From Pseudomonas phage Itty13: DNA of 61,818 nt. Location of the stretch: the sequence record MW460249.1, one strand, 5' to 3'. The notes under the pieces are model-generated. The model worked only from the letters and a program-made list of their open reading frames with translations, made no database searches and was not told the origin of the DNA. A program made the position numbers and the translations under genes. Shown here piece after piece: positions 3,001 to 59,790 of this stretch (its first letter is position 1; each line of letters begins with the position of its first letter).

Positions 3001-6000
3001 CGAAAAGCTCCTCCTTCTGGAGGTCGGTCTTGGCGTCGTGGATGAAGGCGATCTCGTCGGCCGGGATGCCCTTGGCGATCAGCTTCTGCTTCAGGTCGTC
3101 ATAGACCGAGAAGTCACTGTCCAGGGCCATCAGCTCGTCGGGGCTGACCTTATCCAGCTCGGCGGCCGCGTCCTCGTCTCCCTCGTCGGCCCGGCGTGCG
3201 AGGTCGCGCAGGCGCTCGGCCTCGGCGGAACGAGCGTTCTTCGGCGTGGACAGGTCGATGAAGACCAGTTGCGTGCCGCGATCCTCGTGGAACTTGTCGT
3301 AGAGCGCGCGCATGTTGCCGGCGGCGACGTTGACCTTGCTGCCCTCGTAATCCGGGTAGCTCGGGTCGATCAGGCGCATATCCAGGGCGGCCTTCCGGGC
3401 GTCGCCCATGATCTTCAGCATGTTGTCCGAACCCTTCTCCGCCTTCTTCGGCAGGTTCTCGGAGCGCCAAACCAGCGTGCCGCGCGGGTAATCGTCGGTG
3501 TCGTTGCCGTCCGCGTCCTTGATCGGCTCGCCGATGTAGTTGGCCTGGTCCTGGCTGCGCGGGACGACGACGTTCTCCGGCTTGCCGCCGCGCACCTTCG
3601 GCACCGGCAGCTTCTTGCCCTGGGCGGCGAGCATGCGGTTGATGTCCGCGCGGTTCACCACGTCGGCGAAGGAGCCGTAGCGCTGCATCAGCTCCGGCAT
3701 GTTCACGAATTTCGCGAACCGGCTGTTCATCTTGTACTTGCCGGACGGCGACAGCTCCCAGTCGGTCACGACCTCGCCGAACATGCGCGCCCAGGCGTCG
3801 AAGTGGCTCAGGCCCTGGCCCTTCAGGTTCACATAGTCGAGATACCGCTGCATGGTGTACATCTCGGCCATGGTGTTGCTGATCGGCGTGCCGGTGGCGA
3901 AGACCACGTTGCGGCCGCCGGTGGCCTTCAGCACCTGCCGGACCTTCAGGAACAGGTCGGCCGCCTTCTGGCTGCCGGTCTGCGTGCCCAGGCCTGCGAC
4001 GCGGTTCATGGAGGTGGAGAACGCGAGGTTCTTGAACTCGTGCGCCTCGTCCACGAACAAGGCGTCCACGCCCAGCTCGCCCCAGTACAGGCTGTCGTCC
4101 TTGTTGTCGGCGTCGATCAGCTTCTTCAGCTTCTCCTGCAAGGCGTCGCGGCGCTTCTGCGTCTCCTTGACGTTCCGGCTGTTCTTGCCGTCCACCTGAC
4201 GCATCAGCTCGATGGAGGCGTCGAGGTCATCGACCTGCTCCTGAATGAATGCGGCCTGCTCGTGCGGCTCCACCTCGACCTTGCCGAAACTTGTGTGCGC
4301 GACGATCACCGCGTCCCAGTCGCCGGTGGCGATCCGGGCGAACAGGCGCTTGCGGTTCTCCTTCTCGAAGTCCTTCTTGGTCGCCGCGAGCACGTTGGCG
4401 CCAGGGTAGAGCTTGGTGAAGTCGGCCGCCCACTGGCTGACGAGGTGGTTCGGCACCACGAACATGGGCTTCTTGGCGAGGCCCATGCGGCGCAGCTCCA
4501 TCGCGCCGGCGACCATGGTGAAGGTCTTGCCGGCGCCGACGACGTGGTCCAGCAGGGTCGTGTCAGCCTGCACGATCCGCCACACGGCGTTCCCCTGGTG
4601 CGGGCGCAGGGAGATGATGTCGTCGCCGACCTTGCCGGGGAACGTGAGGTGCGAGCCGTCGTAGTCGCGCGCGACGTTGGTGTTGTAGGTGTCGTTGTAG
4701 ATGCGGCCCAGGCGCTCGCGCCGGGCATCGTCAGCCCACACCCAACGATCCCAGGCCTCCTTGACCGCGTTCACCTTGTCGTTGGCGAGCTGGGTTTCGC
4801 CCTCGTTCAGGGTGCGGCTGCCGTCCGGGTGCGAGTCGTAGACCTGTAGGGTCTTCTGGTTCGCCGCGGCTTCGAGGATGCCGGTCAGGGTGACGCGGCC
4901 GGTGGCGAAGCGCTGGTCGGCTGCGGTGGTGGCATCGACGTTCAGGAACGACCACTTCGCGGTCGCCGGGTTGTAGATGGCGCGGGCGCGGCTGCCCTCG
5001 GCGACGTGGTTGGCGAACTCGGCCATCACTTCCTGCGGCACCCATGGGGCGCCCGGCTTGACGTTGATGTCCACAGCCTCGATGTCGGCCGGCTGCACAC
5101 CTTCCAGGGCTTCGACGTTCGCGGCGAATGCCGGATCGCTCTTGGCCGCCTCGCGGGCCTTGGCCAGCTTCGCCTTCACGTTCCCGCTCAGGTACTCGTC
5201 GCGGGTGACGTAGCCCTTCACCGGGTCCTGATAGACGAGGTCGCCAAGCTCCTTGACGATGGTGTCCGGCGACTTGCCGTACAGCTCGCTCATCAGGTCG
5301 AGGTCTACGCGGCCGGTCTCGGCGAGGCTGGCGACCAGGGCGTCCTTCGCCGACGCGGCGCTGGTCGGCGCCTGATACGGCTGCTGGGTGCGCTTGCTGA
5401 AGATCGCCGCCTTCTGCGCGCTCGGCTTGCGAGCCTCCTCGCCGGTCTTCTTCGCCATGGCGGCGGACAGCCCCTTGTCGAAGTTGTCCTCCAGGGCGGA
5501 GAGCTGCGGCCACGTCGGATCGTCGCGGAACAGGCGCTTGTTGGCGTCGAGGTTGATCGGGCCGTTCGCCTTGACGAAGGCGTCATAGGCCGCGTTCAGC
5601 TCCTTGCGGGCGGCCTCGATCCGCTTGTCGGTGGCGCTCGGGTCCAGTTGCAGGCCGCGCAGGCGGGCCAGCACGTCGCGGATGCCGATCATGCCGACGA
5701 CGCGCTCGCGGGCCTTCTCGTTCGGGAAGGTCACGGCCTCGGCGGTGTTCTCGCCCAGCACGTCCTCGCCGCGCACCTTCACGGTGTCGCCGTCGAGGAA
5801 CATGGAGCCGACGCGCACGTTCTCGGCGCGCACGGTCTCGGCGGTCTCCGGCTTCACCGCCGCCGCCTGGGTCATGACGCCCTCGGGCAGGCGGTCGATG
5901 GCGCGCGCCAGCTCGGCCTGGGTGTCCTGGCCCTCGCGGGCGACCAGGGCGGGCTCGCCGTCGCGGTACATGGAGCCGTAGGCGCCGAAGTCGCCGAGCA

Positions 6001-9000: not shown

Positions 9001-12000
9001 TGTCGGCTGGGACGGTCTGCTCCTCGTGCGCGATGCCGCGCGCGTTCAGGAAGTTGACCATGGCGCCGCGATGCTCGGCCTTGATCTGCGGCATCTCGGC
9101 TCGCGGCACGCTCAGGGTGCCGGAGTCTGGCGCGAAGGCGGACCACTCGCCGTCGATGTCCTGGCCGCGCATGTCTCCGCCGGCTTCGTCCTGGGTCTGC
9201 TGCTTGGCGTAGGTGACGCCGGCGCGGCTGGCTCGCTCCAGCTCGGCCCGGCTCAGGTTGGTCCGGGAGTTTGTTTCCGCATTGCGGACGACGACCTCGC
9301 CGTTCTTCTCGATGCGCTCGATGACGTAGGGCTTTCCGCCGGAGGCATAGCCGACATCGGCGGACGGCACGATGGTGTCGCCGACCTCGGCGCCGATCAG
9401 CTTGCGAGCGCGGTTGATGTGGCCAGAGGTCTTCGGCTGTTCCTGCTGCGCGGTAGGCGCCTGGGCGGCCGGCTCTTGCTCGGCAGGCGCCTTGCGTTTC
9501 TGGATGATCAGCTTTCCATCGACTGCCTTGGTGCGGAACTCCAGGCCAGGATTGAACTTCCGCATGTCTACGACGGCTTCCATGACCTCCTTTCGGCTGC
9601 GGTCGGTGAAGCCGGGCACGGCTTCCCAACCGTCCTGGGGCGCCTTCTCGCGGATCTCGAAGCGCGAGCGGCCGGCTTCGACAACCTCGTGACTGTCGGC
9701 CAGCTTCTTCTTGGCGATGAAGGCGTCGGCCTTCTCGCGGCTACCGAACCACTTCACGGGCGCCTGCTCGACCGGCTGCTCCGCCTTCACCTCCGGGGAG
9801 GCCTGCTGCTCGGGCTGCGCCGGCTGCTCCTCGACCGGAGCGGCCTGGGCCTTTTTCGCCTCGATGGCGGCCTCTACCTTGCGGCGCTCCTGAATGAGCG
9901 TCTTGTTCCATCCGCCAGCGTTGCGGGCCTGACCGGCGAGATACTTCAGGCGCTCGCGCAGCTCGGGCTCGTCCATCTCCTCGTAGGTGCGCGCGGGCTT
10001 GCGCTCCTCGGGAGCGGGCTCGGCCACCTGTTCGGTTTCGCCGAACAACTGCGGTTGCTCGGCCGCCTGTTCGGCCTGGGCTGGTGCCGGCTCCTCCGCC
10101 GGCTGTGCGGGCTGCTGCTCCTGCGCGGGCGCGGCAGGCTCCTCGACAGGCGCCGGCTGGGCGGCCTGCTGGGCGGCGGCTGCCTGCTCCTCGGGCACGA
10201 CGGTGACGGCGCCGGAGGCGACCTCGTCGGCGGTGATCTGATAGCTCTGGCCGTCGTCGCCACGGATCATCATGCCTTCCGGGGTCTCGGAGACCACGGC
10301 GCCGGTGATCGGATCGACACCTTCGGCGACCAGGGCGACACGGCGGCCATCGGCGGCGCTCTCGTCGGCGCGGCCGGGCTGGGCGCTCTGGAGCGCGCGA
10401 CCGAGCGGGCCGGACGGTGCCGGCTGCGGCGCGGGCTGGGGAGCGGGCTGGGGAGCGGGCTGGGGCTCCGGCTGCGGCGCGGGCGGGGCGGCCTGGACCT
10501 CCTGCGGTGCCTCGGCGGCCGGGGTCGTCTCAGCCTGGGCGGCCGGAGTGGTCGCTGCCGGCTGAGCGGCCGGGGTGGCGCCGTCCTCGCTGACGGTAGG
10601 CTCGATGCGCTCGCGCTGCTCCGCCGGCTTGCGGCTGGTCAGCTTCTCGGCGCCGGCGAACGTGCCACCCAAGGCGCCGCCGGTCATGGCGCCGATGATG
10701 GCGCTGTCGCGCACCTGTACCAGCGCTTCCTTCAAGGTCATGTCCGGGCTGATGTAGCCCTTGTCGATGCCGGCCTGGAGCGCGGCAGTCACCGCCTCCT
10801 GAGCGCCCTCCAAGACGGTGCCTTCGAGCGCCTTTTTCATGATGCCGGCGCCGGGCTTGAGCAGGCGTCCGAGAACAAGCGCCTCGGGTGCAGCCTCGGC
10901 GGCGGCAGTCAGCAGGGCATAGGTCTGCGCCTGCTCCTCGCTCAGGCCGTTCTCTCGGCCGGTGGCGTAGGCCTGACCGCCCACCTGTCCGCCCATGATG
11001 GCGGTTGCGATGCGCGGATTTCGGGTGACGACGGCAGCAGCCAGCATCGGCGCCATCTCGGCCAGCGAGCCGATGGCGGCGCTGCCGTAGTAGGCCATGC
11101 TCTCCGGCTCGGGGCGAACCTCGACCATCGTCTTCTTGGTCTGCTCGCGCCAGTCACGCGCGAAGGCCGAAATCTCCTTCGGGTTGATGATGCCGGCGGC
11201 GTCGAGCTGCTTCAGTTGCTGCTCGTTGAGCGACTGGGCGATGTTCTGCTTGACGGTGCGCAGCGCTTCGGGAATCGGCGTCTTCGGGTCGATCAGCTTC
11301 TCGTTGCCGGCCCAGGCCAGCAGCTTCATGTCGCCGGGCGTGATGCCGTACTGGCGCGCGCGGTCAGCGATGAAGCGCTCGCGCTCCAGGCCCAGGTCCT
11401 CGCCCGCCATCTGGATTAGGCCGGCAATCGACTGCTGGAAGCGCTCTGGCACGTTGGCCAGCGATGCGCCCGTGGCTTCGAGGAAACCCTGATACTCGCG
11501 GGTGTCCTTCGGCGGCAGGCCGGCGGCCAGACGGTTCTGGTTCTCCAGGGTGAGCGGCGACGGCTGGGCCTCGGCCTGCTGTTGCTGCTGGCGCTGCTGG
11601 TTCTCGATGGTGAGCGGAGACGGTGCGCTGACCTGAACAAACGGCTGGGTGGCGGCGAGCGCATCGCCCTGCATCATGGCCGCGCGGCGCTGGTAACGCT
11701 CGACCTGATCGGGCGTCAGCGCCGTGTAACGGCCGGGCTCCTCCTCGTCGAGCATCTTCTGGAGCTGCGCGACGGCCTGGGGCTGATCCGGGTTGGCGGG
11801 CGCACCAGCGCCAGCGGTGCCGGTCGGCGTGAACTGGCCGCCCCACTTGGCGACCTTCTCCATCACTTCCTCGCCGTAGCGAGCGGTCTTCGGCCCCCAC
11901 TGGCGGCGATCCGGGCCGGCGAAGTGCTCCTTGACCGCATCCTCCATGGAGTAACCCTTGTCCAGGCGCTCGCGTATCTGGCGCGCGGCGGCGTCGATGG

Positions 12001-24650: not shown

Positions 24651-25285
24651 TCACCCTCGTCTTCGTCGAGGATTTGCTTGATGCGCTCGGCAGTCAGCTT
24701 GTGGTGCGGCGCCTTTTTGAACCGCGCCTTGTACTGCTCGACCAGGGCCTCGCGATCCAGGGGAGCAGGCTGCTCGGCGGCCTTGTCGTCGCCTTTGGTC
24801 TCGTCGCCATTGCCAGTGTCGGCCTCGCTATCGGCGTCGGCATCATCGACCAGCTCCACCGGATCGGCCTCGATTGCCTTGACCAGCTCCTCGTCGCTCA
24901 GGTCCTCGGCGCCCTCGATCTCCATGTCGCGGGCCAGCACCAGCAGTTGCTCGCGCGGAAGCTGCGGCAGGGTGGAGACGCTACCGTCCTTGTTCTGCAC
25001 GCCGGCCAGGGTGCCGAGCACCGGCTGATCGGTGTTCAGCGGGGAAGCCTGCACCGGCGGCGCCGGCGGCTGCTGCACGGGCGCTGGCGCGGGCGAGGCC
25101 TGGGTCTCGTCGATCTCGGCTGGCTGGAAGCCCTCGGGAATGGACAGGAAGCGCTGGATGTGTGCGCGGATGCTCACCTCGGCAAGGTGGCGCTCATCCT
25201 CCGGCGTCGGCTTGAAGTGGTAGACCTGATCGTCCAGCTCGACGCGCGTGCCGTTCTTCCGGCGGATGATGCTCTCGATCTTCAT
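24647..25285 (-). CDS. Hypothetical head protein with acidic C-terminal tail (212 aa)
   Basis: Track ORF 24647..25765 trimmed to the ATG at 25285 (RBS GAGGG). The upstream part of the track ORF is an out-of-frame overlap with 25336..25785. The C-terminus is acidic and low complexity (DDADADSEADTGNGDETKGDD). Confidence 0.5.
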   Translation of the reverse strand: MKIESIIRRKNGTRVELDDQVYHFKPTPEDERHLAEVSIRAHIQRFLSIPEGFQPAEIDETQASPAPAPVQQPPAPPVQASPLNTDQPVLGTLAGVQNKDGSVSTLPQLPREQLLVLARDMEIEGAEDLSDEELVKAIEADPVELVDDADADSEADTGNGDETKGDDKAAEQPAPLDREALVEQYKARFKKAPHHKLTAERIKQILDEDEGE

Positions 25286-25335
25286 GGGGATACCCTCGGT
25301 AGGAAAGAGCCGGCTTTCGCCGGCTCCTGCGTGGA

Positions 25336-25785
25336 TCACTCGCCGGTCTGGTAGTAGAACAGCACCAGATGCAGCTTCTTGCCGGCGGCGGCCGCGACAT
25401 CGCCGGAGAACTTCATGCCGATGCCGCGCGAGCCTTCGATGGACTTGATCAGCATCGACTCGCCCTTGCTCAGGGAGGCGAACTGCACAGCCTGGGCCGC
25501 GAACAGCTCGTTGCCCGAGGTGCGAGTGGTGTCCTCGGCATCGCCGTAGGTGCCGGACATCAGGCCCACGTCCACGGTGATGCCGGTGAAGCTCCCTTCG
25601 GAGATCAGGGTCGCGGAACCGATCTGGCAGAACGGCGGAAGCTCGCCGATCTCCAAAATGTCGGCGGCGGCGACTGCCTGATTGCTGAAGTCGAAGGTGA
25701 ACTTCTGCGCATGACTGGCGCCGGCGGTTTGCGGACGGACGGCCTGACGGTTGCCCTTGGCCCAAGCGGATTGGATGATTGCCAT
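25336..25785 (-). CDS. Head decoration / capsid-associated protein (149 aa)
   Basis: Follows the major capsid gene directly. Protein-like, high GC3. Confidence 0.5.
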   Translation of the reverse strand: MAIIQSAWAKGNRQAVRPQTAGASHAQKFTFDFSNQAVAAADILEIGELPPFCQIGSATLISEGSFTGITVDVGLMSGTYGDAEDTTRTSGNELFAAQAVQFASLSKGESMLIKSIEGSRGIGMKFSGDVAAAAGKKLHLVLFYYQTGE

Positions 25786-25812
25786 TACTTAGCTCCTCCT
25801 GTTGACCCGAAC

Positions 25813-26913
25813 TCAGGCGTTCGGGTCTTTGGCAGCGGTGTCGATGGCGCAGATGCCGAAGTCCCGGCCGTTGAAGCGGGTCTTGGTCACGCCGATGATG
25901 GTGCCAGCGCAGACGGTCGGCTCGTTGTCGAAGTCGTCCATCTCTTCCTTCCAGGTGAAGCGCAGGCCGCCGGCGGTGCCGAACGCGACGACGCCAGCCT
26001 GACGGCCCATGAACAGGGCGCGGGCTGCGGCGACGTTGCTACCAGCGCCGTAGTCGTTGAAGCGGATCGCCGACTCGTGGCTGTGCAGCACGACGTTGTT
26101 GATCATGCCCATGGAGCCCTTGAAGATCGGGTTGTTGCGACCTTCAGCGGCGGCAGCGGCCTTCTGCACTTCGAGCCAGCCGCGTTCGCCGGTCTCGTTG
26201 CGCAGGTCGTGCTCTTGGAACGGCGACATCAGGCAGACGTAGTGCTTCTCGCCGTTGACCGTGACCGGCATCATGTTCGCGGTCTTCGGGTCCCTGGCGC
26301 GCATCATCTTCGCCTTAACGACGGCGCGCTCGATCATGTAGCGGGTCATCACGTCGGTGGCGTCCAGGGTGGCCTTGGACTGCGCATCGCCGCCGTACAG
26401 CAGGTGCTGCGAATCCGGCGGCAGGAACGCATTGCCCGCGTGGCCGGTGTAGTCGGTCGGCTCGATGAAGTCCTCGTTGATGCCACGAGCACCGGACATG
26501 TACATGAAGTACAACTCGTCGATGTACATGGACCAGTAGTCGGACAGACGATCCTTGGCGACGCGGCGCAGGTCGTGCGCGGTGCGCTTGCGGGTCATCT
26601 TGCCGCCGGCGGAGACGGTCTTACGGATTTGGTCGATGATGACCTCATCGGTGTAGAACTTCAGGTTCTCCTCGGTGCCCTTGGCGCGGTTATCGCCATG
26701 CACCGGCTTGCCCCGGAGTTGTACCGACAGGTCGAAGGAGATGCGGTCGCCCGCGTCGCTCTCCAGCTCGGTCTTACGCTGGATGACGCTGTTCTCGGAC
26801 TCGCCGACGAAGCGGGTGTCCCAGTAGCTTTTCTTGGCGGTCTCCAAGAAGAGCTTGGCGGACCATTTCTTGATGGCCTTCGGATCACCGAAGGGAATAA
26901 CAGTTTGAGTCAT
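25813..26913 (-). CDS. Major capsid protein (366 aa)
   Basis: Positioned after portal, scaffold and CsrA-like genes. Size and composition fit a podovirus major capsid protein. A strong promoter-like conserved region with RBS GAGGG lies upstream. Confidence 0.75.
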   Translation of the reverse strand: MTQTVIPFGDPKAIKKWSAKLFLETAKKSYWDTRFVGESENSVIQRKTELESDAGDRISFDLSVQLRGKPVHGDNRAKGTEENLKFYTDEVIIDQIRKTVSAGGKMTRKRTAHDLRRVAKDRLSDYWSMYIDELYFMYMSGARGINEDFIEPTDYTGHAGNAFLPPDSQHLLYGGDAQSKATLDATDVMTRYMIERAVVKAKMMRARDPKTANMMPVTVNGEKHYVCLMSPFQEHDLRNETGERGWLEVQKAAAAAEGRNNPIFKGSMGMINNVVLHSHESAIRFNDYGAGSNVAAARALFMGRQAGVVAFGTAGGLRFTWKEEMDDFDNEPTVCAGTIIGVTKTRFNGRDFGICAIDTAAKDPNA

Positions 26914-26914
26914 A

Positions 26915-27020
26915 GCGCTGTGCCCTCATGCGGGTTGATGCTTGCACGTCGAAACCGCACGTCTTGCGCAGCGCCGTCCGTTCCGATTATCGGGTAAGTG
27001 ATTGCAAAACGCAAACACCT
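26915..27020 (-). promoter_or_regulatory. Capsid-gene promoter/leader: operator palindrome TTTGCGTTTTGCAA plus -10 GATAAT plus conserved leader shared with the erf upstream region
   Basis: On the gene strand the sequence GTGTTTGCGTTTTGCAATCACTTACCCGATAATCGGAACGGACGGCGC...CGCAAGACGTGC parallels 50297-50380. Confidence 0.5.
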
Positions 27021-27045
27021 ATGGCATGGCGACGGCCATAGGTGC
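27013..27045. other. 10-bp perfect inverted repeat (CACCTATGGC ... GCCATAGGTG) overlapping the stop of the CsrA-like gene
   Basis: Stem-loop with a 9-nt loop; it encodes the C-terminal PMAVAMP of the CsrA-like protein. Confidence 0.5.
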
Positions 27046-27204
27046 CTGCTGGCTAACCTCTCGCAGGTGTGGCCCCTTGATCGGGACATCCTGGGGCGCC
27101 TCGATCACCAGACTGGCGATCTGGCCTGACTTCTTGACCATCTTCACGGTGACATCGCCGATCTGGACGCTCTGTCCGGGGCGCAGGTCGATCTTCAGGG
27201 CCAC
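27019..27204 (-). CDS. csrA-like: CsrA/RsmA-family RNA-binding regulator homologue (61 aa)
   Basis: GTG start with RBS AGGAGAG. The product MALKIDLRPGQSVQIGDVTVKMVKKSGQIASLVIEAPQDVPIKGPHLRE aligns with the CsrA core (IGDxVxV ... GxQxxIGIEAPKDVxV...REE). A 10-bp perfect inverted repeat overlaps its stop codon. Confidence 0.65.
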   Translation of the reverse strand: MALKIDLRPGQSVQIGDVTVKMVKKSGQIASLVIEAPQDVPIKGPHLREVSQQAPMAVAMP

Positions 27205-27213
27205 GTTTCTCTC

Positions 27214-28107
27214 CTAGCGGCTTGCGAGGTACGCTTCTTGGTCGGCCTCAGACAGCTTGCCGAAGGCCTTCTCGAAGCCGAGCGGGTCGCTGTCCATCAG
27301 GCGATCAAGGCTCGCCCACCGGCCGTCGTCGGTGTCGTTGATGTCCGCCGCCGGGACCTTGGCGAGGCTCGGTGGAATCTCGCGCTGCTGGCGCTCCTGC
27401 TTCCTGGCCGGCTCCTTGCCGCTCTTGTCGTCCGCCTTGGACTGCTCGGTCGGCAGGCCCAGGTCCTCGGCCCACTGCTTGTAGGCCTTCTTCAGGTCGG
27501 CCATGCCGGGGTTCTTGCCGGCCTGCATGGTCTCGGCCGTCACCTTGCGCACGACGGTATCGAAGGAGGACCAGCGCAGCTCGTTCTTGGCGATCTCCGG
27601 GTGCCCTTCGAGGAAGGTCTGGACGTTCGCCTGCCACATGGCGTCGATCTGCGCCTGATTGTGCTTCTCGGCGAAGTCGGCCTCCAGTTGCTGGCGCTCG
27701 ATGGCGCCGCGCTCCTTCTCCAGCTTGCGCAGCTCGGCACGGTATTCCGCCGTGGTCAGGTCGCCGTCCTCGAACTTCTGCGAGATTTCATCCTCGCGCT
27801 TGTCGATGTCGGCCAGCTTCGCCTCGGCATCCTCGACGGCATCGACCTTCAGCAGCGGCAGCGGGCGCGCGCTGTCTTCCTCGCCCTGGTCATCGTCGGG
27901 GTTCGGCTGATCATCCTTGCCGTCGTCGCGGCCGGGCTGCTGCTGATCGTCCGGGTTCGGCTCGTCGTCCTCGCCGGCGCCCGGCTGGTCGTCGTTGTCG
28001 TCGCCGGCTCCGGTATCGGTGTCGTCGTCCGGCAGGTCGTCGCTGTGCTCCTCGTCGAGCCCGGCGCGTTCTTCTTCGGTCAGCAGAGCAAGTTCTTCAG
28101 GGGACAT
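27214..28107 (-). CDS. Scaffolding protein (297 aa)
   Basis: Highly acidic (D/E/P-rich N-terminus) and helical. Sits between the portal and capsid genes. Confidence 0.65.
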   Translation of the reverse strand: MSPEELALLTEEERAGLDEEHSDDLPDDDTDTGAGDDNDDQPGAGEDDEPNPDDQQQPGRDDGKDDQPNPDDDQGEEDSARPLPLLKVDAVEDAEAKLADIDKREDEISQKFEDGDLTTAEYRAELRKLEKERGAIERQQLEADFAEKHNQAQIDAMWQANVQTFLEGHPEIAKNELRWSSFDTVVRKVTAETMQAGKNPGMADLKKAYKQWAEDLGLPTEQSKADDKSGKEPARKQERQQREIPPSLAKVPAADINDTDDGRWASLDRLMDSDPLGFEKAFGKLSEADQEAYLASR

Positions 28108-28125
28108 TCCTCGATCCTCTCGTGG

Positions 28126-30468
28126 TTACATGGGTGGTTGCTGCTGTGCGGGATCAGCCGGCGGCTGTTCCTGCTGTGCCTGTTGCTGCTGCGCGGCCTG
28201 CTCCTGGGCTGCTTGCTCCTGGGCGGCCTGCTGCTGTGCCTGGGCCTCGATCATCGCCTGCTGCTCGGCGGCGGCCTGCTGCTGGGCGATTGTCTCCTGC
28301 TCGGTGCGCGACTGGAAGCCGGCCTCGTGCAGGACGGTGTCGGCGATTGGGACAACCTGGGGCGCGCTGACCATGGCGAGCGCGGTTTCGAGCGCCTTGC
28401 GCTGGGTGTCCACGTTCTGGCCGGCGAGCTGGCTGGCGATCTGCTGCGCCTGCACGGCGATCCGCTGGGCGTCGGCGGCAGACTTCTGCGCGTCGGCTGC
28501 TGTCTTCTGCGCGTCCGCCTCCTTCTTGGCGATGTCGGCCATGGCGGCGCGCTGCTGCATTTCGGCCTGGGCCTGCTTCGCCTGCTCCTGCTGGATTTCC
28601 TCGGGCGTCGGCTCCTCGGCGTCCGGGTCGCGCATGCCGGTGACTTGGCGGATGCGCTTCACCAGCTCCTCGCGGTTGCCGATGTCCATCTCCTCGACGA
28701 TCAGGTCGATCATCACCATGGCGAGCTGCGGCGCCACCGGCGCGAGCTGGCCGAGCATGGCCAGCAGCTCCTCGGCTTGGTTCTGGCGGATCGTGGCGCG
28801 CCAGTCGGACTCGCTGATGACGAAGTCGGCCTTGGTCCGGGTGATGTCGTTCTCCGGCAAGCCGTCGTTGATCGCGATGTATTCCGGCGTGCCGCGCATG
28901 TTGGTGATGCGGAACTCCTTTTCCTCGCTGAAGAACTGCTCGACGAGGGAAAGCTGCTTCTCGCCCTGTATCTGCGTAGCGAAGCGCAGGTTGTCGAAGA
29001 CGCCAGCGGTTGCCATGCTGCCCTGTTCCTGGCGGAGACCGATGGCCTTGCCGGAAGTGGCGTTCGTGCTGCGCCCCAGCAGCTCGTCGGTCACGCCCGA
29101 CAGCGTCTGGATCATGTTGATGGACCGGCCCATCATTTCGAGGTGAGCGGCGGCCAGCTCGCGCTCGGCGTTCAGGACCAGCTCTTTGCCCTGCTTCTTG
29201 ACGATCACGGCGTCCGGGCGGGCGACCTCTTCCTTGAACTCGTCGATGTCATCGACCGCGCCCTCGTCCATGATCACCTTGTTGGTGCTCAGGATGTGCA
29301 GGGCCTTGGCCGCGCGCTTGTTGATGTCGTACTGGATGTCGCGCATGCCCCGGATCATGCCGTAGGGCAGCCCGTCGCGGCCGCGCCGGTAGCACCAAAT
29401 AGGCGTGAACGGGAAGCGGTTGTGCCGGTACGGGCTCTCGCCGTAGTACAGGATGCCCGACGAGGTGAAGATGCAGACATGCACCCGCATCATGATCTTG
29501 TCCACGACGACGGACTCGCCGGCCTCGATGGCGGCGCGGTGGCCTGGGCTGTACTTGTCGTAGACCTCGCCCTTGAACTCGCCGCCGTACATCTGCTTGA
29601 CGGACACGGGCCGGCGTATCCAGCCCTCGATCAGGCGCACGCGGTTGCGCTGGTACTCGCTGAGGTTCGACCGGGAGCTGCTGTAGTCTTGCAGCTCGAT
29701 CTCGGCCGAGTCCATTGCCTCATCGCCCTGGGTGTCGATGCCGTAGCTGTCGGTGTCACGGGCGGAGGTGCGCAGCAGGCCGGCGCGCTTCGGGAACATC
29801 GCTTCGGCGACATCGAGGTCCACCCACTTGGAGCGGAACACATAGCGGCAGTCGCTCAGGTCCTTCTCGGTCGAGGCGCTGTCCCATAGCATGTTGCGCC
29901 AGGACTCGTAGCGCGAGTAGACGGGCTCCTCGTCGCCGTCGTCCTGCACGCCGTCCTCCAGCCAGCCGACGCCGACCTTGACGCAGTCCTCGAAGGCGCG
30001 CGAGCGGTGGAACGGTGTGCGGTTCACGTCGCTCAGGTACTTGAGCAACTGGGTCTTGCGGCGGGCCTGCCGGCCGGACTCCTTGCGGCGAGGCAGGACG
30101 CGGAAGTCGGAGCGCCCGCGCTTCTCGGTGCCGATCACCCAGTTAATCGCCTGGGTGATGACGTTGTAGACTAGCGGCTCCTGGCCACGGTCGCGGAGCG
30201 TCTGCGCGTCCTCGGGCGTCCACTGGATGCTGTCGTAGAAGTCCTCGTCCACCGCCATCTGCGCGCGGTTCTCGGCCTGCCGGTCCAGCTCCTGCTCGTA
30301 GATGCCCAGGATTTCGGTGTGGAAGCGCTTCATCCGGTCGTTATCGAGCGGGTGCTGCTTCTTCCCTTGCGGCGCCGGGTTGTCGTTGGCGGTGCGGGTC
30401 CAGGCGTCGTCCTTCTTGACGCGCGCGCCGGCGATGTCCGGGCCTTGCATGTGGTCGGCGTCAAACAT
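28126..30468 (-). CDS. Portal protein (780 aa from ATG at 30468)
   Basis: Large ORF directly after the terminase-region genes. The internal ATG (MFDADHMQGPD...) overlaps the stop of the upstream gene (ATGTTTGA). Size and position are typical of a podovirus portal. Confidence 0.8.
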   Translation of the reverse strand: MFDADHMQGPDIAGARVKKDDAWTRTANDNPAPQGKKQHPLDNDRMKRFHTEILGIYEQELDRQAENRAQMAVDEDFYDSIQWTPEDAQTLRDRGQEPLVYNVITQAINWVIGTEKRGRSDFRVLPRRKESGRQARRKTQLLKYLSDVNRTPFHRSRAFEDCVKVGVGWLEDGVQDDGDEEPVYSRYESWRNMLWDSASTEKDLSDCRYVFRSKWVDLDVAEAMFPKRAGLLRTSARDTDSYGIDTQGDEAMDSAEIELQDYSSSRSNLSEYQRNRVRLIEGWIRRPVSVKQMYGGEFKGEVYDKYSPGHRAAIEAGESVVVDKIMMRVHVCIFTSSGILYYGESPYRHNRFPFTPIWCYRRGRDGLPYGMIRGMRDIQYDINKRAAKALHILSTNKVIMDEGAVDDIDEFKEEVARPDAVIVKKQGKELVLNAERELAAAHLEMMGRSINMIQTLSGVTDELLGRSTNATSGKAIGLRQEQGSMATAGVFDNLRFATQIQGEKQLSLVEQFFSEEKEFRITNMRGTPEYIAINDGLPENDITRTKADFVISESDWRATIRQNQAEELLAMLGQLAPVAPQLAMVMIDLIVEEMDIGNREELVKRIRQVTGMRDPDAEEPTPEEIQQEQAKQAQAEMQQRAAMADIAKKEADAQKTAADAQKSAADAQRIAVQAQQIASQLAGQNVDTQRKALETALAMVSAPQVVPIADTVLHEAGFQSRTEQETIAQQQAAAEQQAMIEAQAQQQAAQEQAAQEQAAQQQQAQQEQPPADPAQQQPPM

Positions 30469-30886
30469 GCTCGCGCACCTCGAAGTGGCGGACGTTGCCG
30501 TTCTCGTCGGTGCGGAAGGCATCGGCGACGACGACGGTCTCGGTCGGCTTGGGCGGGATTTTCAGCAGCTCGCCCAGCTCGTCGCGGACGATGGACAGGA
30601 TGCGCAGCAGCGTGAAGCGGTTGAAGCCGTCGAGGCCCAGGCACTCGGCGAACTGGAAAGCGGTCTGCACCGCGTCCTGATGGTCGCCGACCTCCTCGCT
30701 CCACTTCCAGGCGTTCTCCAGGGGGACGACGCAAGGGGTGACGCGCTCGAAGCCCTCGCGGTAGCTCGGGACCAGCACCAGGGCCGGGCGCTGCTGCTCG
30801 CCGAACCATGTGCCGTAGGCGGTGATGTCGCCGTGCTGGCGGCGGAATGCGTGCTTGGTCAGGTCCAGGGCGATGCGGGTGCTCAC
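30461..30886 (-). CDS. Hypothetical protein (141 aa)
   Basis: GTG start with RBS GAGGA; the start overlaps the stop of the small membrane gene (GTGA). Its stop overlaps the portal ATG. Confidence 0.5.
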   Translation of the reverse strand: MSTRIALDLTKHAFRRQHGDITAYGTWFGEQQRPALVLVPSYREGFERVTPCVVPLENAWKWSEEVGDHQDAVQTAFQFAECLGLDGFNRFTLLRILSIVRDELGELLKIPPKPTETVVVADAFRTDENGNVRHFEVREHV

Positions 30887-33521: not shown

Positions 33522-34267
33522 TGCTCGCCCCCTGGCTTCAGCGTGGCGCCGGAGACCTGTTGCAGCAGCAGTGCAATCGGGTTCTCGGCGTCGCCCTTCA
33601 GGGTCAGCTTGTCGTTGAACATGCCCAGGTGGCGCGCGACGTTCTCCAGGGCCTTGCCCTGATCCTGCATTTTCACCTCCAGGCCTTCCTTCGTGACCTT
33701 CACGCCGGCGTAGAGCGCTCGGGCTGACGGGCCGAGGTGGCGGGTGTCGGCCACGAACACATCGCCATGGCCCTCGCCGAAGCACTTCGGGCACCTGGGA
33801 TGCGGCGGCAGGGTCGGGTCGAAGCCGTATCCGCCCTCGTCGCTGGGCGGCTCGCGGTCATCCTTCGCGGCGTTGTCGCAAGCGCGCTCGTACTCGGCCT
33901 CGTCCTTCCAGTGGTAGGCGTGGTCCCGGCCATAGCAATGCCGGCAGCAGACGCGGCGGTGCTGGATCAGCTCGTTCGGGTCGGCGGTGGCGATCTCCCA
34001 CCAGCGCTGGAGCACCATCTCTTGCGTGATCTGCGTCCGTGCAGACAGGTCCTTGCGCGCTTCGGCGATGGCCTGGGCGATTTCAGGTTTTTTCAACAGC
34101 TCGTCGCCGATCTGACCGGCGGTCTTGGCGCTGTATTTCGCGCGGATGGCCGCCTGAGTGGCGTTCAGGTCAACGAGGTACTCCTCGACGAAACGCTGTT
34201 GCTTCGGCGTGAGTGGGCGTGTGGATTTCGTGGATGCCGCTGCATCTTGCGCGCGCTTCGTGGGCAT
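33518..34267 (-). CDS. terS: Terminase small subunit with Cys-rich insertion
   Basis: N-terminal region (LTPKQQRFVEEYLVDLNATQAAIRAKYSAKTAGQIGDELLKKPEIAQAI) matches the terminase small-subunit (Terminase_2) pattern. Head of the late minus-strand operon, with an operator motif ~60 nt upstream. Confidence 0.7.
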   Translation of the reverse strand: MPTKRAQDAAASTKSTRPLTPKQQRFVEEYLVDLNATQAAIRAKYSAKTAGQIGDELLKKPEIAQAIAEARKDLSARTQITQEMVLQRWWEIATADPNELIQHRRVCCRHCYGRDHAYHWKDEAEYERACDNAAKDDREPPSDEGGYGFDPTLPPHPRCPKCFGEGHGDVFVADTRHLGPSARALYAGVKVTKEGLEVKMQDQGKALENVARHLGMFNDKLTLKGDAENPIALLLQQVSGATLKPGGEQ

Positions 34268-34323
34268 AACTCGTTGATCCGACTCCGGTATTGACGAATC
34301 GCCTGAGATGGTGATTCAGGCGT

Positions 34324-34347
34324 GACTGTTTCGATTGTAAAAACGGA
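34324..34347. promoter_or_regulatory. Operator motif (CTGTTTCGATTGTAAAAACGG / TTTTTACAATCGAAACAG) between divergent terS and the 34357 gene
   Basis: It abuts the RBS of the plus-strand gene and lies ~60 nt upstream of the terS ATG. Confidence 0.4.
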
Positions 34348-56129: not shown

Positions 56130-56171
56130 TCCTGCTGCGCCCCACCTTGTCCCTTTCCCTCCTGTTTGCGT

Positions 56172-56198
56172 CGTGCTATCCCGTGTTTCGATTTCGCA
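56172..56198 (+). promoter_or_regulatory. Operator motif (GTGTTTCGATTTCGCAAACAGG) fused to the alpA RBS
   Basis: The core 16-mer TGTTTCGATTTCGCAA is identical to the reverse complement of the site at ~49634. Confidence 0.45.
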
Positions 56199-56212
56199 AA
56201 CAGGAGGGCTCC

Positions 56213-58759: not shown

Positions 58760-59102
58760 CTCCAGTCCTCTCCAGCGCCCCCCGCAGTGTGACAATTTCC
58801 TGCTTCATCTGTTCGATGCGCGACTCCAGCATCTTCTGGCTGGTTTCCAGGGCGCGGACGCTGCCGATCAGCTCGCCTACCTCCCGGTAGAGCTTGTTGC
58901 GCTCGGCTGTGACCTCTTGCAGGCTCAGGCGCAGCTCCTTGTTCTCCTCTTGGAGCCGGTCGATCATGTCCACTTCGGCCCTGGCGTTGGCGATCTCCGC
59001 CGCGTCCTTGGAGAGCTTCGTGCGGAGCCACAGGCCGCCCATCACCAGACTGGTCAGGCCGGCGCCGATCATCCCCCACAGGGTTTGCGGTTGCTCGTCC
59101 AT
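58737..59102 (-). CDS. Single-TM membrane protein with long coiled coil (121 aa; holin/lysis-regulator candidate)
   Basis: ATG at 59102 overlaps the endolysin stop (TGATG). TM segment LWGMIGAGLTSLVMGGLWL followed by a heptad-rich C-terminus. Confidence 0.45.
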   Translation of the reverse strand: MDEQPQTLWGMIGAGLTSLVMGGLWLRTKLSKDAAEIANARAEVDMIDRLQEENKELRLSLQEVTAERNKLYREVGELIGSVRALETSQKMLESRIEQMKQEIVTLRGALERTGDERRSQH

Positions 59103-59701
59103 CAGGCAATGCCCCCTCCCGCGCTCTTGAAGGCGGCCGCCAGCTTCGTGTCGTACTGGTTCGCCGCGTAGTTCGGGCCGTTGTAGAGAAGCGCGAAGGT
59201 CTTCCAGTCCTGCCGCTTCAGCGCCTCGTGCAGCTTCGGGTTCGCCTTGACGAACCGGACGAAGGCGTCGAGCTGGTCGCCCTCGCTGTAGTACATGGCG
59301 TTGATGAAGGCCTGGAGCGTGGGATAGCCGAGCGTTTCCCAGTGGTAGCCCATGATCTGGAACAGACCCCAGCTCGCCGACTCCAGGGCGCACTCCCGGT
59401 CGATCAGCTTGGCGGCGCGGTCCATGCGGTCAGGCTGCGCGGACTCCTTGCCGTAGGCGCCGGGCTTCGGGTTGATGATGTCGGGGTAGCGCTCGACCAG
59501 GGCGTCGGCGCGGGTGAAGCCGTACTTGGCCTTGGTGCGCCGGTACATGATGTGGCGCTCGAACAGGACGACCGGGCGGCCATCCGGCAGGAAGCCGTCG
59601 CCACGGCTTTCGACAGCGCAGACCGCTTTCACGGCTGCGACCGGCACCGACAGAGAGTCGGCGGCTTTCTGAATATCGGGATCGGTGAGTTTCTTGCGCA
59701 C
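59102..59701 (-). CDS. Endolysin, N-acetylmuramidase family (199 aa from GTG at 59701)
   Basis: RBS GGAGGC then GTG. Catalytic region VAAVKAVCAVESRGDGF...WGLFQIMGYHWETLGY...FVRFVKANPKLHEALKRQDWKTFALLYNGPNYAAN matches the phage muramidase family. No TM segment. Confidence 0.7.
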   Translation of the reverse strand: MRKKLTDPDIQKAADSLSVPVAAVKAVCAVESRGDGFLPDGRPVVLFERHIMYRRTKAKYGFTRADALVERYPDIINPKPGAYGKESAQPDRMDRAAKLIDRECALESASWGLFQIMGYHWETLGYPTLQAFINAMYYSEGDQLDAFVRFVKANPKLHEALKRQDWKTFALLYNGPNYAANQYDTKLAAAFKSAGGGIA

Positions 59702-59767
59702 AGACGTGCCTCCAGTTTCCACGGGGGGCGGCACGTCATGCGCTGCTGATCACATTCTATACAGCAT

Positions 59768-59790
59768 ATTGCCATTATCGAAACAGTGAA
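59768..59790. promoter_or_regulatory. Operator motif (TTGCCATTATCGAAACAGTG) upstream of the endolysin gene
   Basis: About 70 nt upstream of the lysis cassette; followed on the gene strand by TATAGAAT. Confidence 0.4.

Follow-up and report, generated by a model that had tools for sequence, protein, structure and literature searches.

A divergent CsrA-like gene in the head module of Pseudomonas phage Itty13, with a candidate RNA circuit at the capsid leader

What is a small protein of the CsrA family doing between the scaffold-like and major capsid genes of a phage? We addressed this question in the complete genome of Pseudomonas phage Itty13 (61,818 bp, MW460249.1), which is the window analyzed here, and in which a 61-amino acid (aa) CsrA-like protein is encoded on the minus strand by a gene whose stop codon lies within a palindrome. 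Itty13 infects P. aeruginosa PAR1 and has been used in phage therapy-related inhalation work (PMC8573233). The original prediction, made from the letters of the genome, was that this gene encodes a CsrA/RsmA-type regulator that could either reprogram host Csr/Rsm networks or time late-gene translation, and that the palindrome might be an attenuator, an RNase site, or a protein-binding hairpin. What was observed holds up, and its interpretation finds partial support, with late-gene translation timing fitting the data better than host reprogramming. The explanation that we prefer, to which we give a probability of roughly 45%, would combine 1) a protein of a CsrA-like family, 2) a circuit between that protein and a box found in phage mRNA leaders, and 3) an RNA hairpin at the 3' end of the message that carries the gene. 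The gene and its Shine-Dalgarno (SD) sequence are as follows.

27019..27204 (stop included), minus strand: CsrA-like gene, 61 aa, GTG start, TAG stop (open reading frame [ORF], with Pfam, PHROG, and Foldseek matches)
27209..27215, minus strand: SD sequence AGGAGAG of the CsrA-like gene, read from the sequence, 4 nucleotides (nt) before the GTG

The protein (MALKIDLRPGQSVQIGDVTVKMVKKSGQIASLVIEAPQDVPIKGPHLREVSQQAPMAVAMP) is named "hypothetical protein" at NCBI and "Carbon storage regulator" in UniRef. It very probably belongs to the CsrA superfamily and, within it, to the head-module CsrA-like family PHROG 8397. It matches the Pfam CsrA profile PF02599 above the cut-off, by a narrow margin (29.8 bits vs. 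27, E-value [E] 5.8e-7, residues 3-44 on profile positions 2-44 of 53), and PHROG 8397, "CsrA-like regulator," with an E of 1e-20 (74.4 bits, residues 1-55 on positions 1-55 of 64), which bears out the family assignment that had been predicted. A phmmer search of Protein Data Bank (PDB) sequences matched RsmE (2JPP) at E 0.009. Scores against the NCBIfam CsrA equivalogs TIGR00202 and NF002469 were 13.4 and 18.7 bits, far below the respective cut-offs of 70.1 and 73 that mark orthology, and identity to the aligned canonical CsrAs is 25-33%. The Itty13 protein is a divergent CsrA-superfamily member and not an orthologue of the host regulator.

The predicted fold agrees with this assignment. In an AlphaFold2 monomer model, the mean predicted local distance difference test (pLDDT) score was 77.7, with about 90 over residues 1-40 and block means of 64 and 46 thereafter. 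When this protomer was compared with the PDB using Foldseek, the 14 best matches were all CsrA/RsmA/RsmE chains (template modeling [TM] score 0.57-0.74, root-mean-square deviation 0.7-1.5 Å, about 1 Å over 45 columns), a likeness to be read knowing that the input alignment contained canonical CsrAs, which biased the model towards the CsrA fold. Of the five strands that make up the protomer in solved CsrA/RsmE structures, DSSP assigned only three to the monomer. In solved CsrA structures, strands 1 and 5 pair across the dimer, and residues 1-11 of our model, which are unpaired yet confident (pLDDT about 87), are consistent with a strand that would pair in trans.

Outside this core, the protein departs from canonical CsrA at several places. 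The position of Arg44 (E. coli numbering) is occupied by Gly, preceded by Lys43, in Itty13 and its clade, and relatives show RR, DR, RK, KR, ER, HC, TS, and other pairs at residues 43-44. In an alanine scan by Mercante in 2006, Arg44 was reportedly the CsrA residue most critical for RNA binding. The Thr5 position holds an Asp that is conserved in the family, and no C-terminal helix is predicted after strand 5; residues 45-61 are predicted to be disordered, with a Pro/Gln-rich tail and pLDDT below 50 at residues 51-60. Conserved within the family are basic residues, D6-L7-R8, and K25-S26-G27-Q28 (KSGQ turn); Gly at positions 10, 16, and 27 is common to all 74 aligned sequences and the IGD and AP motifs to most of them. 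Because its equivalog scores are low, position 44 is Gly, and the C-terminal helix is missing, the protein does not look able to replace host RsmA/CsrA.

The candidate target of the protein lies in the gap between its gene and the major capsid gene, which contains the following features.

26986..27014, minus strand: sigma-70-like motif, with -35 TTGCGT at 27014..27009, a 17-nt spacer, and -10 GATAAT at 26991..26986
26914..26985, minus strand: 5' leader of the capsid mRNA, comprising box, helices P1 and P2, and SD
26969..26957, minus strand: leader box GCGCAAGACGUGC, conserved in relatives
26975..26969 with 26920..26914, minus strand: helix P1, next to the AUG
26961..26955 with 26933..26927, minus strand: helix P2
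26927..26923, minus strand: capsid SD GAGGG

A box of the form GCGC-A(G/A/U)GA(N)-GUGC is found in about 30 loci, in all related leaders, 39-61 nt upstream of the capsid AUG. RNAalifold chose the hairpin GCUGCGC-AAGAC-GUGCGGU, whose loop has the general form A-N-G-A-N. The loop reads AGGAU, AGGAA, or AGGA in Bcep22, Skulduggery, GP4, and many metagenomic relatives, several of which have a GGA in the SD as well. Itty13 has an AAGAC loop and a GAGGG SD, neither containing GGA. The CsrA consensus obtained by systematic evolution of ligands by exponential enrichment is RUACARGGAUGU, to which the GCGC-AGGAU-GUGC box of Bcep22, Skulduggery, GP4, and others appears close.

The box also takes part in longer-range pairings. 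In one phage group, it pairs with 7-11 nt just before the AUG, and both partners covary (GGAUGUGC/GCACAUCC, GGAAGUGCC/GGCACUUCC, GGAGUGCC/GGCACUCC, AAGAGUGCU/AGCACUCUU, and GGAGUGUG/CACACUCC). In the Itty13 group, P1 (GGCGCUG/CAGCGCU) and P2 (CGUGCGG/CCGCAUG) enclose the SD and abut the AUG, and P1 changes in sequence with pairing kept in LASTA, Parlo, PEp14, and L018, the variants being GCGCUG/CAGCGC, GCGCC/GGCGC, CGUAAUG/CAUUAUG, and AGUGCUG/UAGCACU. A MAFFT alignment of the leaders lost the register of P1, and we used per-sequence helix searches with random-window backgrounds, which are individually weak (5-28% of background windows were equal or better). Since they share nucleotides, the box hairpin and P1/P2 are mutually exclusive.

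This intergenic architecture of promoter-like motif, box, and helices masking SD and AUG (26914-27014 in Itty13) spans six or more phage genera and was seen in L001-L006, L009-L019, L026-L052, and L060-L091 of the loci compared. A variant leader is present about 100 nt upstream of the capsid gene in the metagenomic loci L078-L082 and L091. It carries two hairpins with GGA in the loop, first GGC-(U/A)GGA(N)-GCC and then GGGCAUGGA(A/U)GUCC, and the SD GAGGACU pairs with the AGUCC of the latter; residue 44 is Arg in the CsrA-like proteins that these phages encode.

Copies of the box occur elsewhere. In Itty13, a second one lies upstream of the endolysin gene, whose product matches Pfam N-acetylmuramidase (PF11860) at E 2.9e-62.

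59731..59743, minus strand: second leader box GCGCAUGACGUGC, upstream of the endolysin gene and downstream of the promoter-like motif TTCGAT-N17-TAGAAT

The endolysin coding sequence probably spans 59102-59701, starting with the GTG at 59701 after GGAGG and not with the GTG at 59734 given by the ORF finder. In its leader (minus-strand window 59695-59790), GACGUGCC pairs with GGCACGUC, and it is the latter that overlaps the SD. The Sinorhizobium phage PBC5 (NC_003324.1) has five copies of the box against 0.75 expected (record positions 961, 3863, 3949, 14018, and 32722), of which four immediately precede the capsid, endolysin, gp19, and DarB-like genes and the fifth lies where the integrase gene begins. 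The 8P/Dartukuta clade places the csrA-like gene among different neighbors and carries the box within the 3'-terminal part of this gene, shortly before the overlapping gene that follows; a further copy there reads CGCA-GGAG-UGCG, with the GGAG loop being the SD of the gene after next (3150-3200 and 3605-3635 in L007; 3135-3185 and 3590-3612 in L008). This placement suggests that the box belongs to the mRNA and is linked to translation, rather than to a promoter.

The box loop also goes with the nature of residue 44. Arg or Lys occupies the CsrA-Arg44 position in 18 of 19 lineages with a GGA box vs. 7 of 16 with an AGA or UGA box, an association with a Fisher p of 0.0017 (0.03 after collapsing related lineages), without phylogenetic correction. 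It may reflect protein-RNA co-evolution.

We turn to the palindrome, which had been reported as a perfect 10-bp repeat with a 9-nt spacer across the stop codon. This description is exact: the arms are CACCTATGGC at 27016-27025 and GCCATAGGTG at 27035-27044, and the TAG (27019-27021) lies within one of them.

27011..27049, minus strand: RNA hairpin across the stop codon, with a 15-bp stem including two G-U pairs and a 9-nt loop (folding, and conservation in the clade)

In the minus-strand (sense) RNA, pairing extends through the two G-U pairs to 15 uninterrupted pairs from 27049 to 27011, the longest uninterrupted hairpin stem in the genome, with a free energy of -25.8 kcal/mol and a z of -5.2 relative to shuffles of the same 49 nt. 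No other perfect inverted repeat in the genome reaches 10 bp with a 3- to 12-nt loop; dinucleotide shuffles average 1.9 such repeats, and many 45-nt windows elsewhere in this GC-rich genome fold more stably. On single-genome statistics, it has no significance beyond chance. The case for its being real is built on conservation in relatives. Across seven Itty13-clade members, with CsrA-like proteins about 62-95% identical, 93% of the stem is paired vs. 31-51% in slid controls, the loop varies in sequence, and one compensatory A-U to G-C change is present (L011). Both Pro codons in the stem are rare (CCT and CCA, 6% each vs. 70% for CCG in the portal, scaffold-like, capsid, and virion structural genes), and both are invariant in the clade, whereas 11 of 18 comparable third positions vary. 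Nonhomologous strong hairpins, several with wobble pairs, span the csrA-like stop codon or lie beside it in L012, L013, L019, L039, L047, GP4, and L076; those of Skulduggery, Bcep22, LASTA, Parlo, and PEp14 are only weak. GP4 has a textbook terminator, CCCAGCGCUGGG-UUUUCUUUU, directly before the capsid promoter, an exception among the relatives' hairpins, which mostly have no clean U-tract. In Itty13, the hairpin core is followed by GUUUUGC, and the U-rich stretch UUUGCGUUUU is the promoter region; measured as a terminator, the element has a stem of 10-15 bp, a loop of 9 nt, and an interrupted tail, UUUGCGUUUUGC, with 7 U in 12. An attenuator, as originally proposed, or a terminator-like RNA hairpin is a plausible reading. 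Among perfect inverted repeats with a loop, the genome's longest is a different one, at 56157-56208 (CCCTCCTGTTTGCG, 24 nt, CGCAAACAGGAGGG), and its GTTTGCG also occurs in the capsid -35 region.

A point absent from the original prediction is that the palindrome abuts a conserved promoter-like motif. The TTGCGT begins 4 nt after the CsrA-like stop codon, and 21 of the 22 distinct csrA-capsid intergenic regions compared, which come from at least six genera, carry TTGnnn-N17-nAnAAT at the corresponding place; TTGC-N19-GATAAT occurs once in the Itty13 genome. The match to the sigma-70 consensus is 3/6 for TTGCGT and 5/6 for GATAAT, with a 17-nt spacer. Once extended, the hairpin reaches into the -35 with its 3' arm, and we propose that the hairpin extends into the coding sequence because the stop codon sits 4 nt from the -35.

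How is the gene placed, and is this placement shared? In Itty13, it belongs to a head module with the following members.

28126..30522, minus strand: portal protein gene (Pfam P22_portal, E 1.5e-197)
27214..28107, minus strand: scaffold-like gene, 297 aa, acidic, coiled-coil (PHROG 8246, function unknown, E 1e-72)
25813..26913, minus strand: major capsid protein gene, 366 aa (Pfam Phage_capsid_3, E 3.5e-72; PHROG 334, major head protein)
25336..25785, minus strand: virion structural gene

Pfam and PHROG matches upheld the predicted location between the scaffold-like and major capsid genes, the minus-strand order being P22-type portal, scaffold-like, CsrA-like, a 105-nt gap, major capsid, and virion structural gene. 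The 297-aa ORF, a putative scaffold judging from its position and composition, lies between the portal and capsid genes in all relatives compared. The AGGAGAG and GTG start of the CsrA-like gene had been correctly predicted, except that they are separated by 4 nt and not 5, and this AGGAGAG overlaps the TAG stop codon of the scaffold-like gene. Such an overlap suggests that the CsrA-like gene is co-transcribed and made together with portal and scaffold, and it is probably translationally coupled to the scaffold-like gene. A 4-kb head-module query (25000-29000), to which this comparison is limited, matched phage records at no more than 77% identity and in parts only. No tRNA genes were found in the Itty13 genome.

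Using the Itty13 protein in tblastn, we retrieved 60 phage records, most of them annotated "CsrA-like regulator" or "carbon storage regulator." The order portal, scaffold-like, CsrA-like, capsid is annotated in Skulduggery, Bcep22, LASTA, Parlo, PEp14, and GP4, and also in JC1, and it recurs in dozens of metagenomic loci, with a csrA-capsid gap of 92-127 nt across 22 distinct loci. In Bcep22-like podophages, the scaffold-like gene is immediately followed by the CsrA-like gene, and in most of these phages the major capsid gene comes next (GP4 has an extra ORF in between); in loci missed by the profile, a small CsrA-like ORF is still present after the scaffold-like gene. The phages of this family infect Burkholderia, Ralstonia, Sinorhizobium, Erwinia, Klebsiella, Serratia, and Pseudomonas. 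The head-module CsrA-like gene is therefore already known, having been annotated in Bcep22-like phages for years, and Itty13 adds one member. A published survey listed 30 csrA-positive phages, GP4 and DC1 among them (PMC7366521). In coliphage PTXU04, knock-down of a csrA homologue led to smaller plaques, and its authors stated in 2025 that the role had previously been untested (PMC11879866); this homologue may belong to another class, and Escherichia phages were absent from the matches of both our protein searches.

The second of these searches, with E. coli CsrA, gave 88 phage records (F116, phi297, Vibrio phages, and others) at 55-69% identity, and it had zero records in common with the 60 retrieved using the Itty13 protein. 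One phage, Dartukuta, encodes one CsrA of each class, which argues for separate jobs. The head-module class looks like a core gene with a job of its own, rather than a recently captured host gene. In Dartukuta (Bacillus phage vB_BspP_Dartukuta, MW749009.1; L008), the near-canonical CsrA is 84% identical to E. coli CsrA, and the other is a divergent CsrA-like protein of the structural module (L008 2992-3186, and record 10712-10876); given the E. coli-like CsrA, the "Bacillus" host label looks doubtful.

PBC5 (L058/L059) encodes the 56-aa gp26 (34158-34328), annotated "hypothetical protein," directly after the scaffold-like gp27. It is a diverged CsrA-like protein that matches Pfam CsrA at E 2e-4, below the cut-off. 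PBC5, and then L074-L076, were considered as controls with a box and no CsrA, and they were rejected because gp26, like a small ORF of L076, is itself a diverged CsrA-like protein. Among the loci compared, we found no relative that lacks a CsrA.

The explanation that we prefer runs as follows. The CsrA-like protein would be a phage-autonomous RNA-binding regulator of the phage's own late mRNAs and no mimic of host CsrA/RsmA. Its likely target would be the box hairpin (GCGC/GUGC stem, A-N-G-A-N loop) that precedes both the capsid AUG and the endolysin gene. This hairpin would compete with P1/P2 in Itty13, and protein sitting on the box would change capsid and endolysin translation, in either direction, by moving the leaders between a masked and an open state, so that coat-protein synthesis would be tied to the earlier expression of portal and scaffold. 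The palindrome would work as RNA, as a stem-loop that ends the portal-scaffold-csrA message and draws its U-rich tail from the -35 region; it would terminate or stabilize the upstream message and insulate the capsid promoter. Taken separately, these parts are not equally probable. That the hairpin acts as RNA at the 3' end of this message, as terminator or stabilizer, has in our judgment slightly better than even chances. A circuit in which the protein controls the capsid and endolysin leaders through the box is possible, and we put it forward tentatively. We are slightly more doubtful about the fullest version, namely a self-contained phage circuit toggling the capsid and endolysin leaders and, in some phages, those of other late operons, and coupling coat synthesis to assembly, in which the changes from Arg44 to Gly and from GGA to AGA would have co-evolved in the Itty13 clade to a new specificity.

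Several of our own results weigh against this explanation. With its AAGAC loop, GAGGG SD, and Gly44, Itty13 is not a case to which canonical CsrA-GGA recognition can simply be transferred, and its clade could have either changed specificity or decayed function. The box stem GCGC/GUGC is invariant and so provides no covariation support for the box; the helices that do covary could work without any protein, for example by stabilizing the mRNA or masking the ribosome-binding site. The fold of the Itty13 leader is not unusually stable (z -1.3). With no CsrA-free control, common descent alone may explain why box and gene occur together, and the residue 44 association carries no phylogenetic correction. 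Covariation of the hairpin within the Itty13 clade was not significant (137/500 shuffles), a consensus terminator scan allowing loops of 3-8 nt did not call it, and the interrupted U-tract UUUGCGUUUU together with the 9-nt loop is a weak point of the terminator reading. The consensus promoter scan also did not call the capsid motif, because its -35 matches at just 3/6 positions, and that TTGCGT-N17-GATAAT is the capsid-gene promoter we infer from conservation only.

Could the protein instead act on the host? It would then mimic RsmA/CsrA and reprogram motility, biofilm, metabolism, or CRISPR-Cas via GGA mRNAs or by titration against RsmY/RsmZ. P. aeruginosa has an Rsm system, and the protein is a CsrA-family member by Pfam and by fold. 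Hypotheses of the same kind have been published for phage RsmA/CsrA (PMC9144972), including an anti-CRISPR or host-manipulation role (PMC8450108), and the JC1 and CSP3 papers view JC1 gp47 and CSP3 orf23 as CsrA "moron" genes upstream of the capsid gene (PMC9144972, PMC10269572). We nevertheless consider such a hijack of host networks unlikely, and the part of the original prediction that concerned them unsupported. The divergence that makes replacement of host RsmA/CsrA doubtful speaks against it, and the family is a fixture of the head module across hosts, including Burkholderia hosts reported to lack a chromosomal csrA (PMC7366521), which points away from host Csr/Rsm reprogramming. Moreover, host-like CsrAs form a separate phage class, with Dartukuta carrying both, and no Csr/Rsm small RNA or other Rfam family was matched, either in a 3-kb region at relaxed E-values or in the whole genome at gathering thresholds. 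A role in assembly, in which the CsrA-like beta-fold would serve protein contacts (as head-assembly chaperone, scaffold partner, or packaged protein) with no RNA regulation, seems to us equally improbable. It would leave unexplained the basic residues, the KSGQ turn, the boxes beside the gene in two genomic contexts, and the association of residue 44 with GGA, although it would account for the strict linkage to the scaffold-like gene even with the capsid gene elsewhere (PBC5 gp26), the loss of Arg44 in several clades, and a hydrophobic C-terminal tail that recurs in the family (...PMAVAMP, ...LALQA). Its one direct pointer, the detection of JC1 gp47 in purified virions, consists of a single peptide (PMC9144972), which is weak evidence.

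For the palindrome, the choice is between RNA, DNA, and no function. If it worked as DNA, a dimeric regulator of phage or host origin would use it as an operator, centered about 51 bp upstream of the inferred capsid start and controlling the capsid promoter. The inverted repeat is indeed perfect at the DNA level and lies immediately upstream of the -35, and in six of the seven clade members the sequence of the half-sites, not just their pairing, is invariant, with a spacer that varies in sequence and not in length. That length, however, is in any case dictated by the reading frame; only in sense-strand RNA does the 5-bp extension pair, via G-U; other clades have unrelated hairpins at this place, several with wobble pairs; and no second copy of the half-site lies near the other box-type promoter motif, that of the endolysin gene. 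An operator is on these grounds a poor candidate. The palindrome might also have no function at all and be a by-product of a conserved C-terminal peptide and stop codon beside a conserved -35, which we regard as quite improbable. Repeats of this kind are expected by chance, the 3' arm is bound by the stop codon and promoter and the 5' arm by the P-M-A codons, clade covariation is not significant, and the hairpins of Skulduggery, Bcep22, LASTA, Parlo, and PEp14 are weak; yet conservation of a peptide creates no reverse-complementarity, the two rare Pro codons that pairing needs do not vary, and there are the compensatory change in L011 and the independent strong hairpins that recur in other clades. 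An RNA hairpin closing the portal-scaffold-csrA message is the reading that we retain.

It is instructive to set the Itty13 locus beside known systems. The nearest are the CsrA-like regulators of Bcep22-like phages (Bcep22 gp54, BcepIL02 gp49, JC1 gp47, DC1, CSP3 orf23, GP4, and Skulduggery gp12; PHROG 8397), which are of the same family and size, have 42-71% core identity to the Itty13 protein with D6-L7-R8 and K25-S26-G27-Q28 in common, and are likewise encoded after a scaffold-like gene about 100 nt before the capsid gene. The Itty13 clade differs from them by having Lys-Gly and not Arg-Arg at 43-44, PMAxAMP tail codons that form a hairpin, and a box with AGA and not GGA. Canonical CsrA/RsmA/RsmE (1Y00, 1VPZ, and 2JPP) have the same predicted protomer fold (TM 0.66-0.74, about 1 Å over 45 columns) and are unlike the Itty13 protein in sequence, at Arg44 and Thr5, and in their C-terminal helix, which a disordered tail replaces. 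Host-type CsrAs of temperate Pseudomonas and Vibrio phages (F116, phi297, H66, and Vibrio 219E41) are also phage-encoded members of the superfamily; they differ in retaining Arg44 and the helix, in their 55-69% identity to E. coli CsrA, and in lying outside the head module. These host-type proteins are the "RsmM" class (PMC7366521).

Two likenesses concern flagellin. With FlbT (NF009432), which is twice as long, the Itty13 protein has a weak N-terminal similarity (E 0.056, 13.5 vs. a cut-off of 153), from which we claim no membership. FlbT is an alpha-proteobacterial repressor of flagellin translation, dedicated to the mRNA leader of one structural subunit. The fliW-csrA-hag module of Bacillus subtilis reportedly serves flagellin homeostasis, as Yakhnin in 2007 and Mukherjee in 2011 are said to have described. 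There, csrA is immediately upstream of hag, which has an intergenic promoter and a leader with a hairpin site and an SD-proximal site. The layout is analogous, with csrA before the gene of a major polymerizing subunit, and by analogy its logic would couple translation of the subunit to assembly. In the phage, however, the subunit is the capsid protein and the Itty13 leader is without GGA; a FliW homologue was not sought, and none turned up.

What would this mean for the phage and its relatives? The usual assumption for phage CsrA homologues is host manipulation, while the comparative data point to cis targets within the phage. The Itty13 gene is probably no host-virulence moron, which is relevant given the use of this phage by inhalation (PMC8573233). 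The gene itself is ordinary; the more interesting lead is the terminator-promoter-leader architecture and its apparent co-evolution with the CsrA-like protein. If the proposed circuit is true, it would be a viral counterpart of the FliW-CsrA-flagellin checkpoint. Its confirmation would show CsrA-fold proteins to be regulators devoted to the synthesis of virion proteins and would account for their constant place in the head module.

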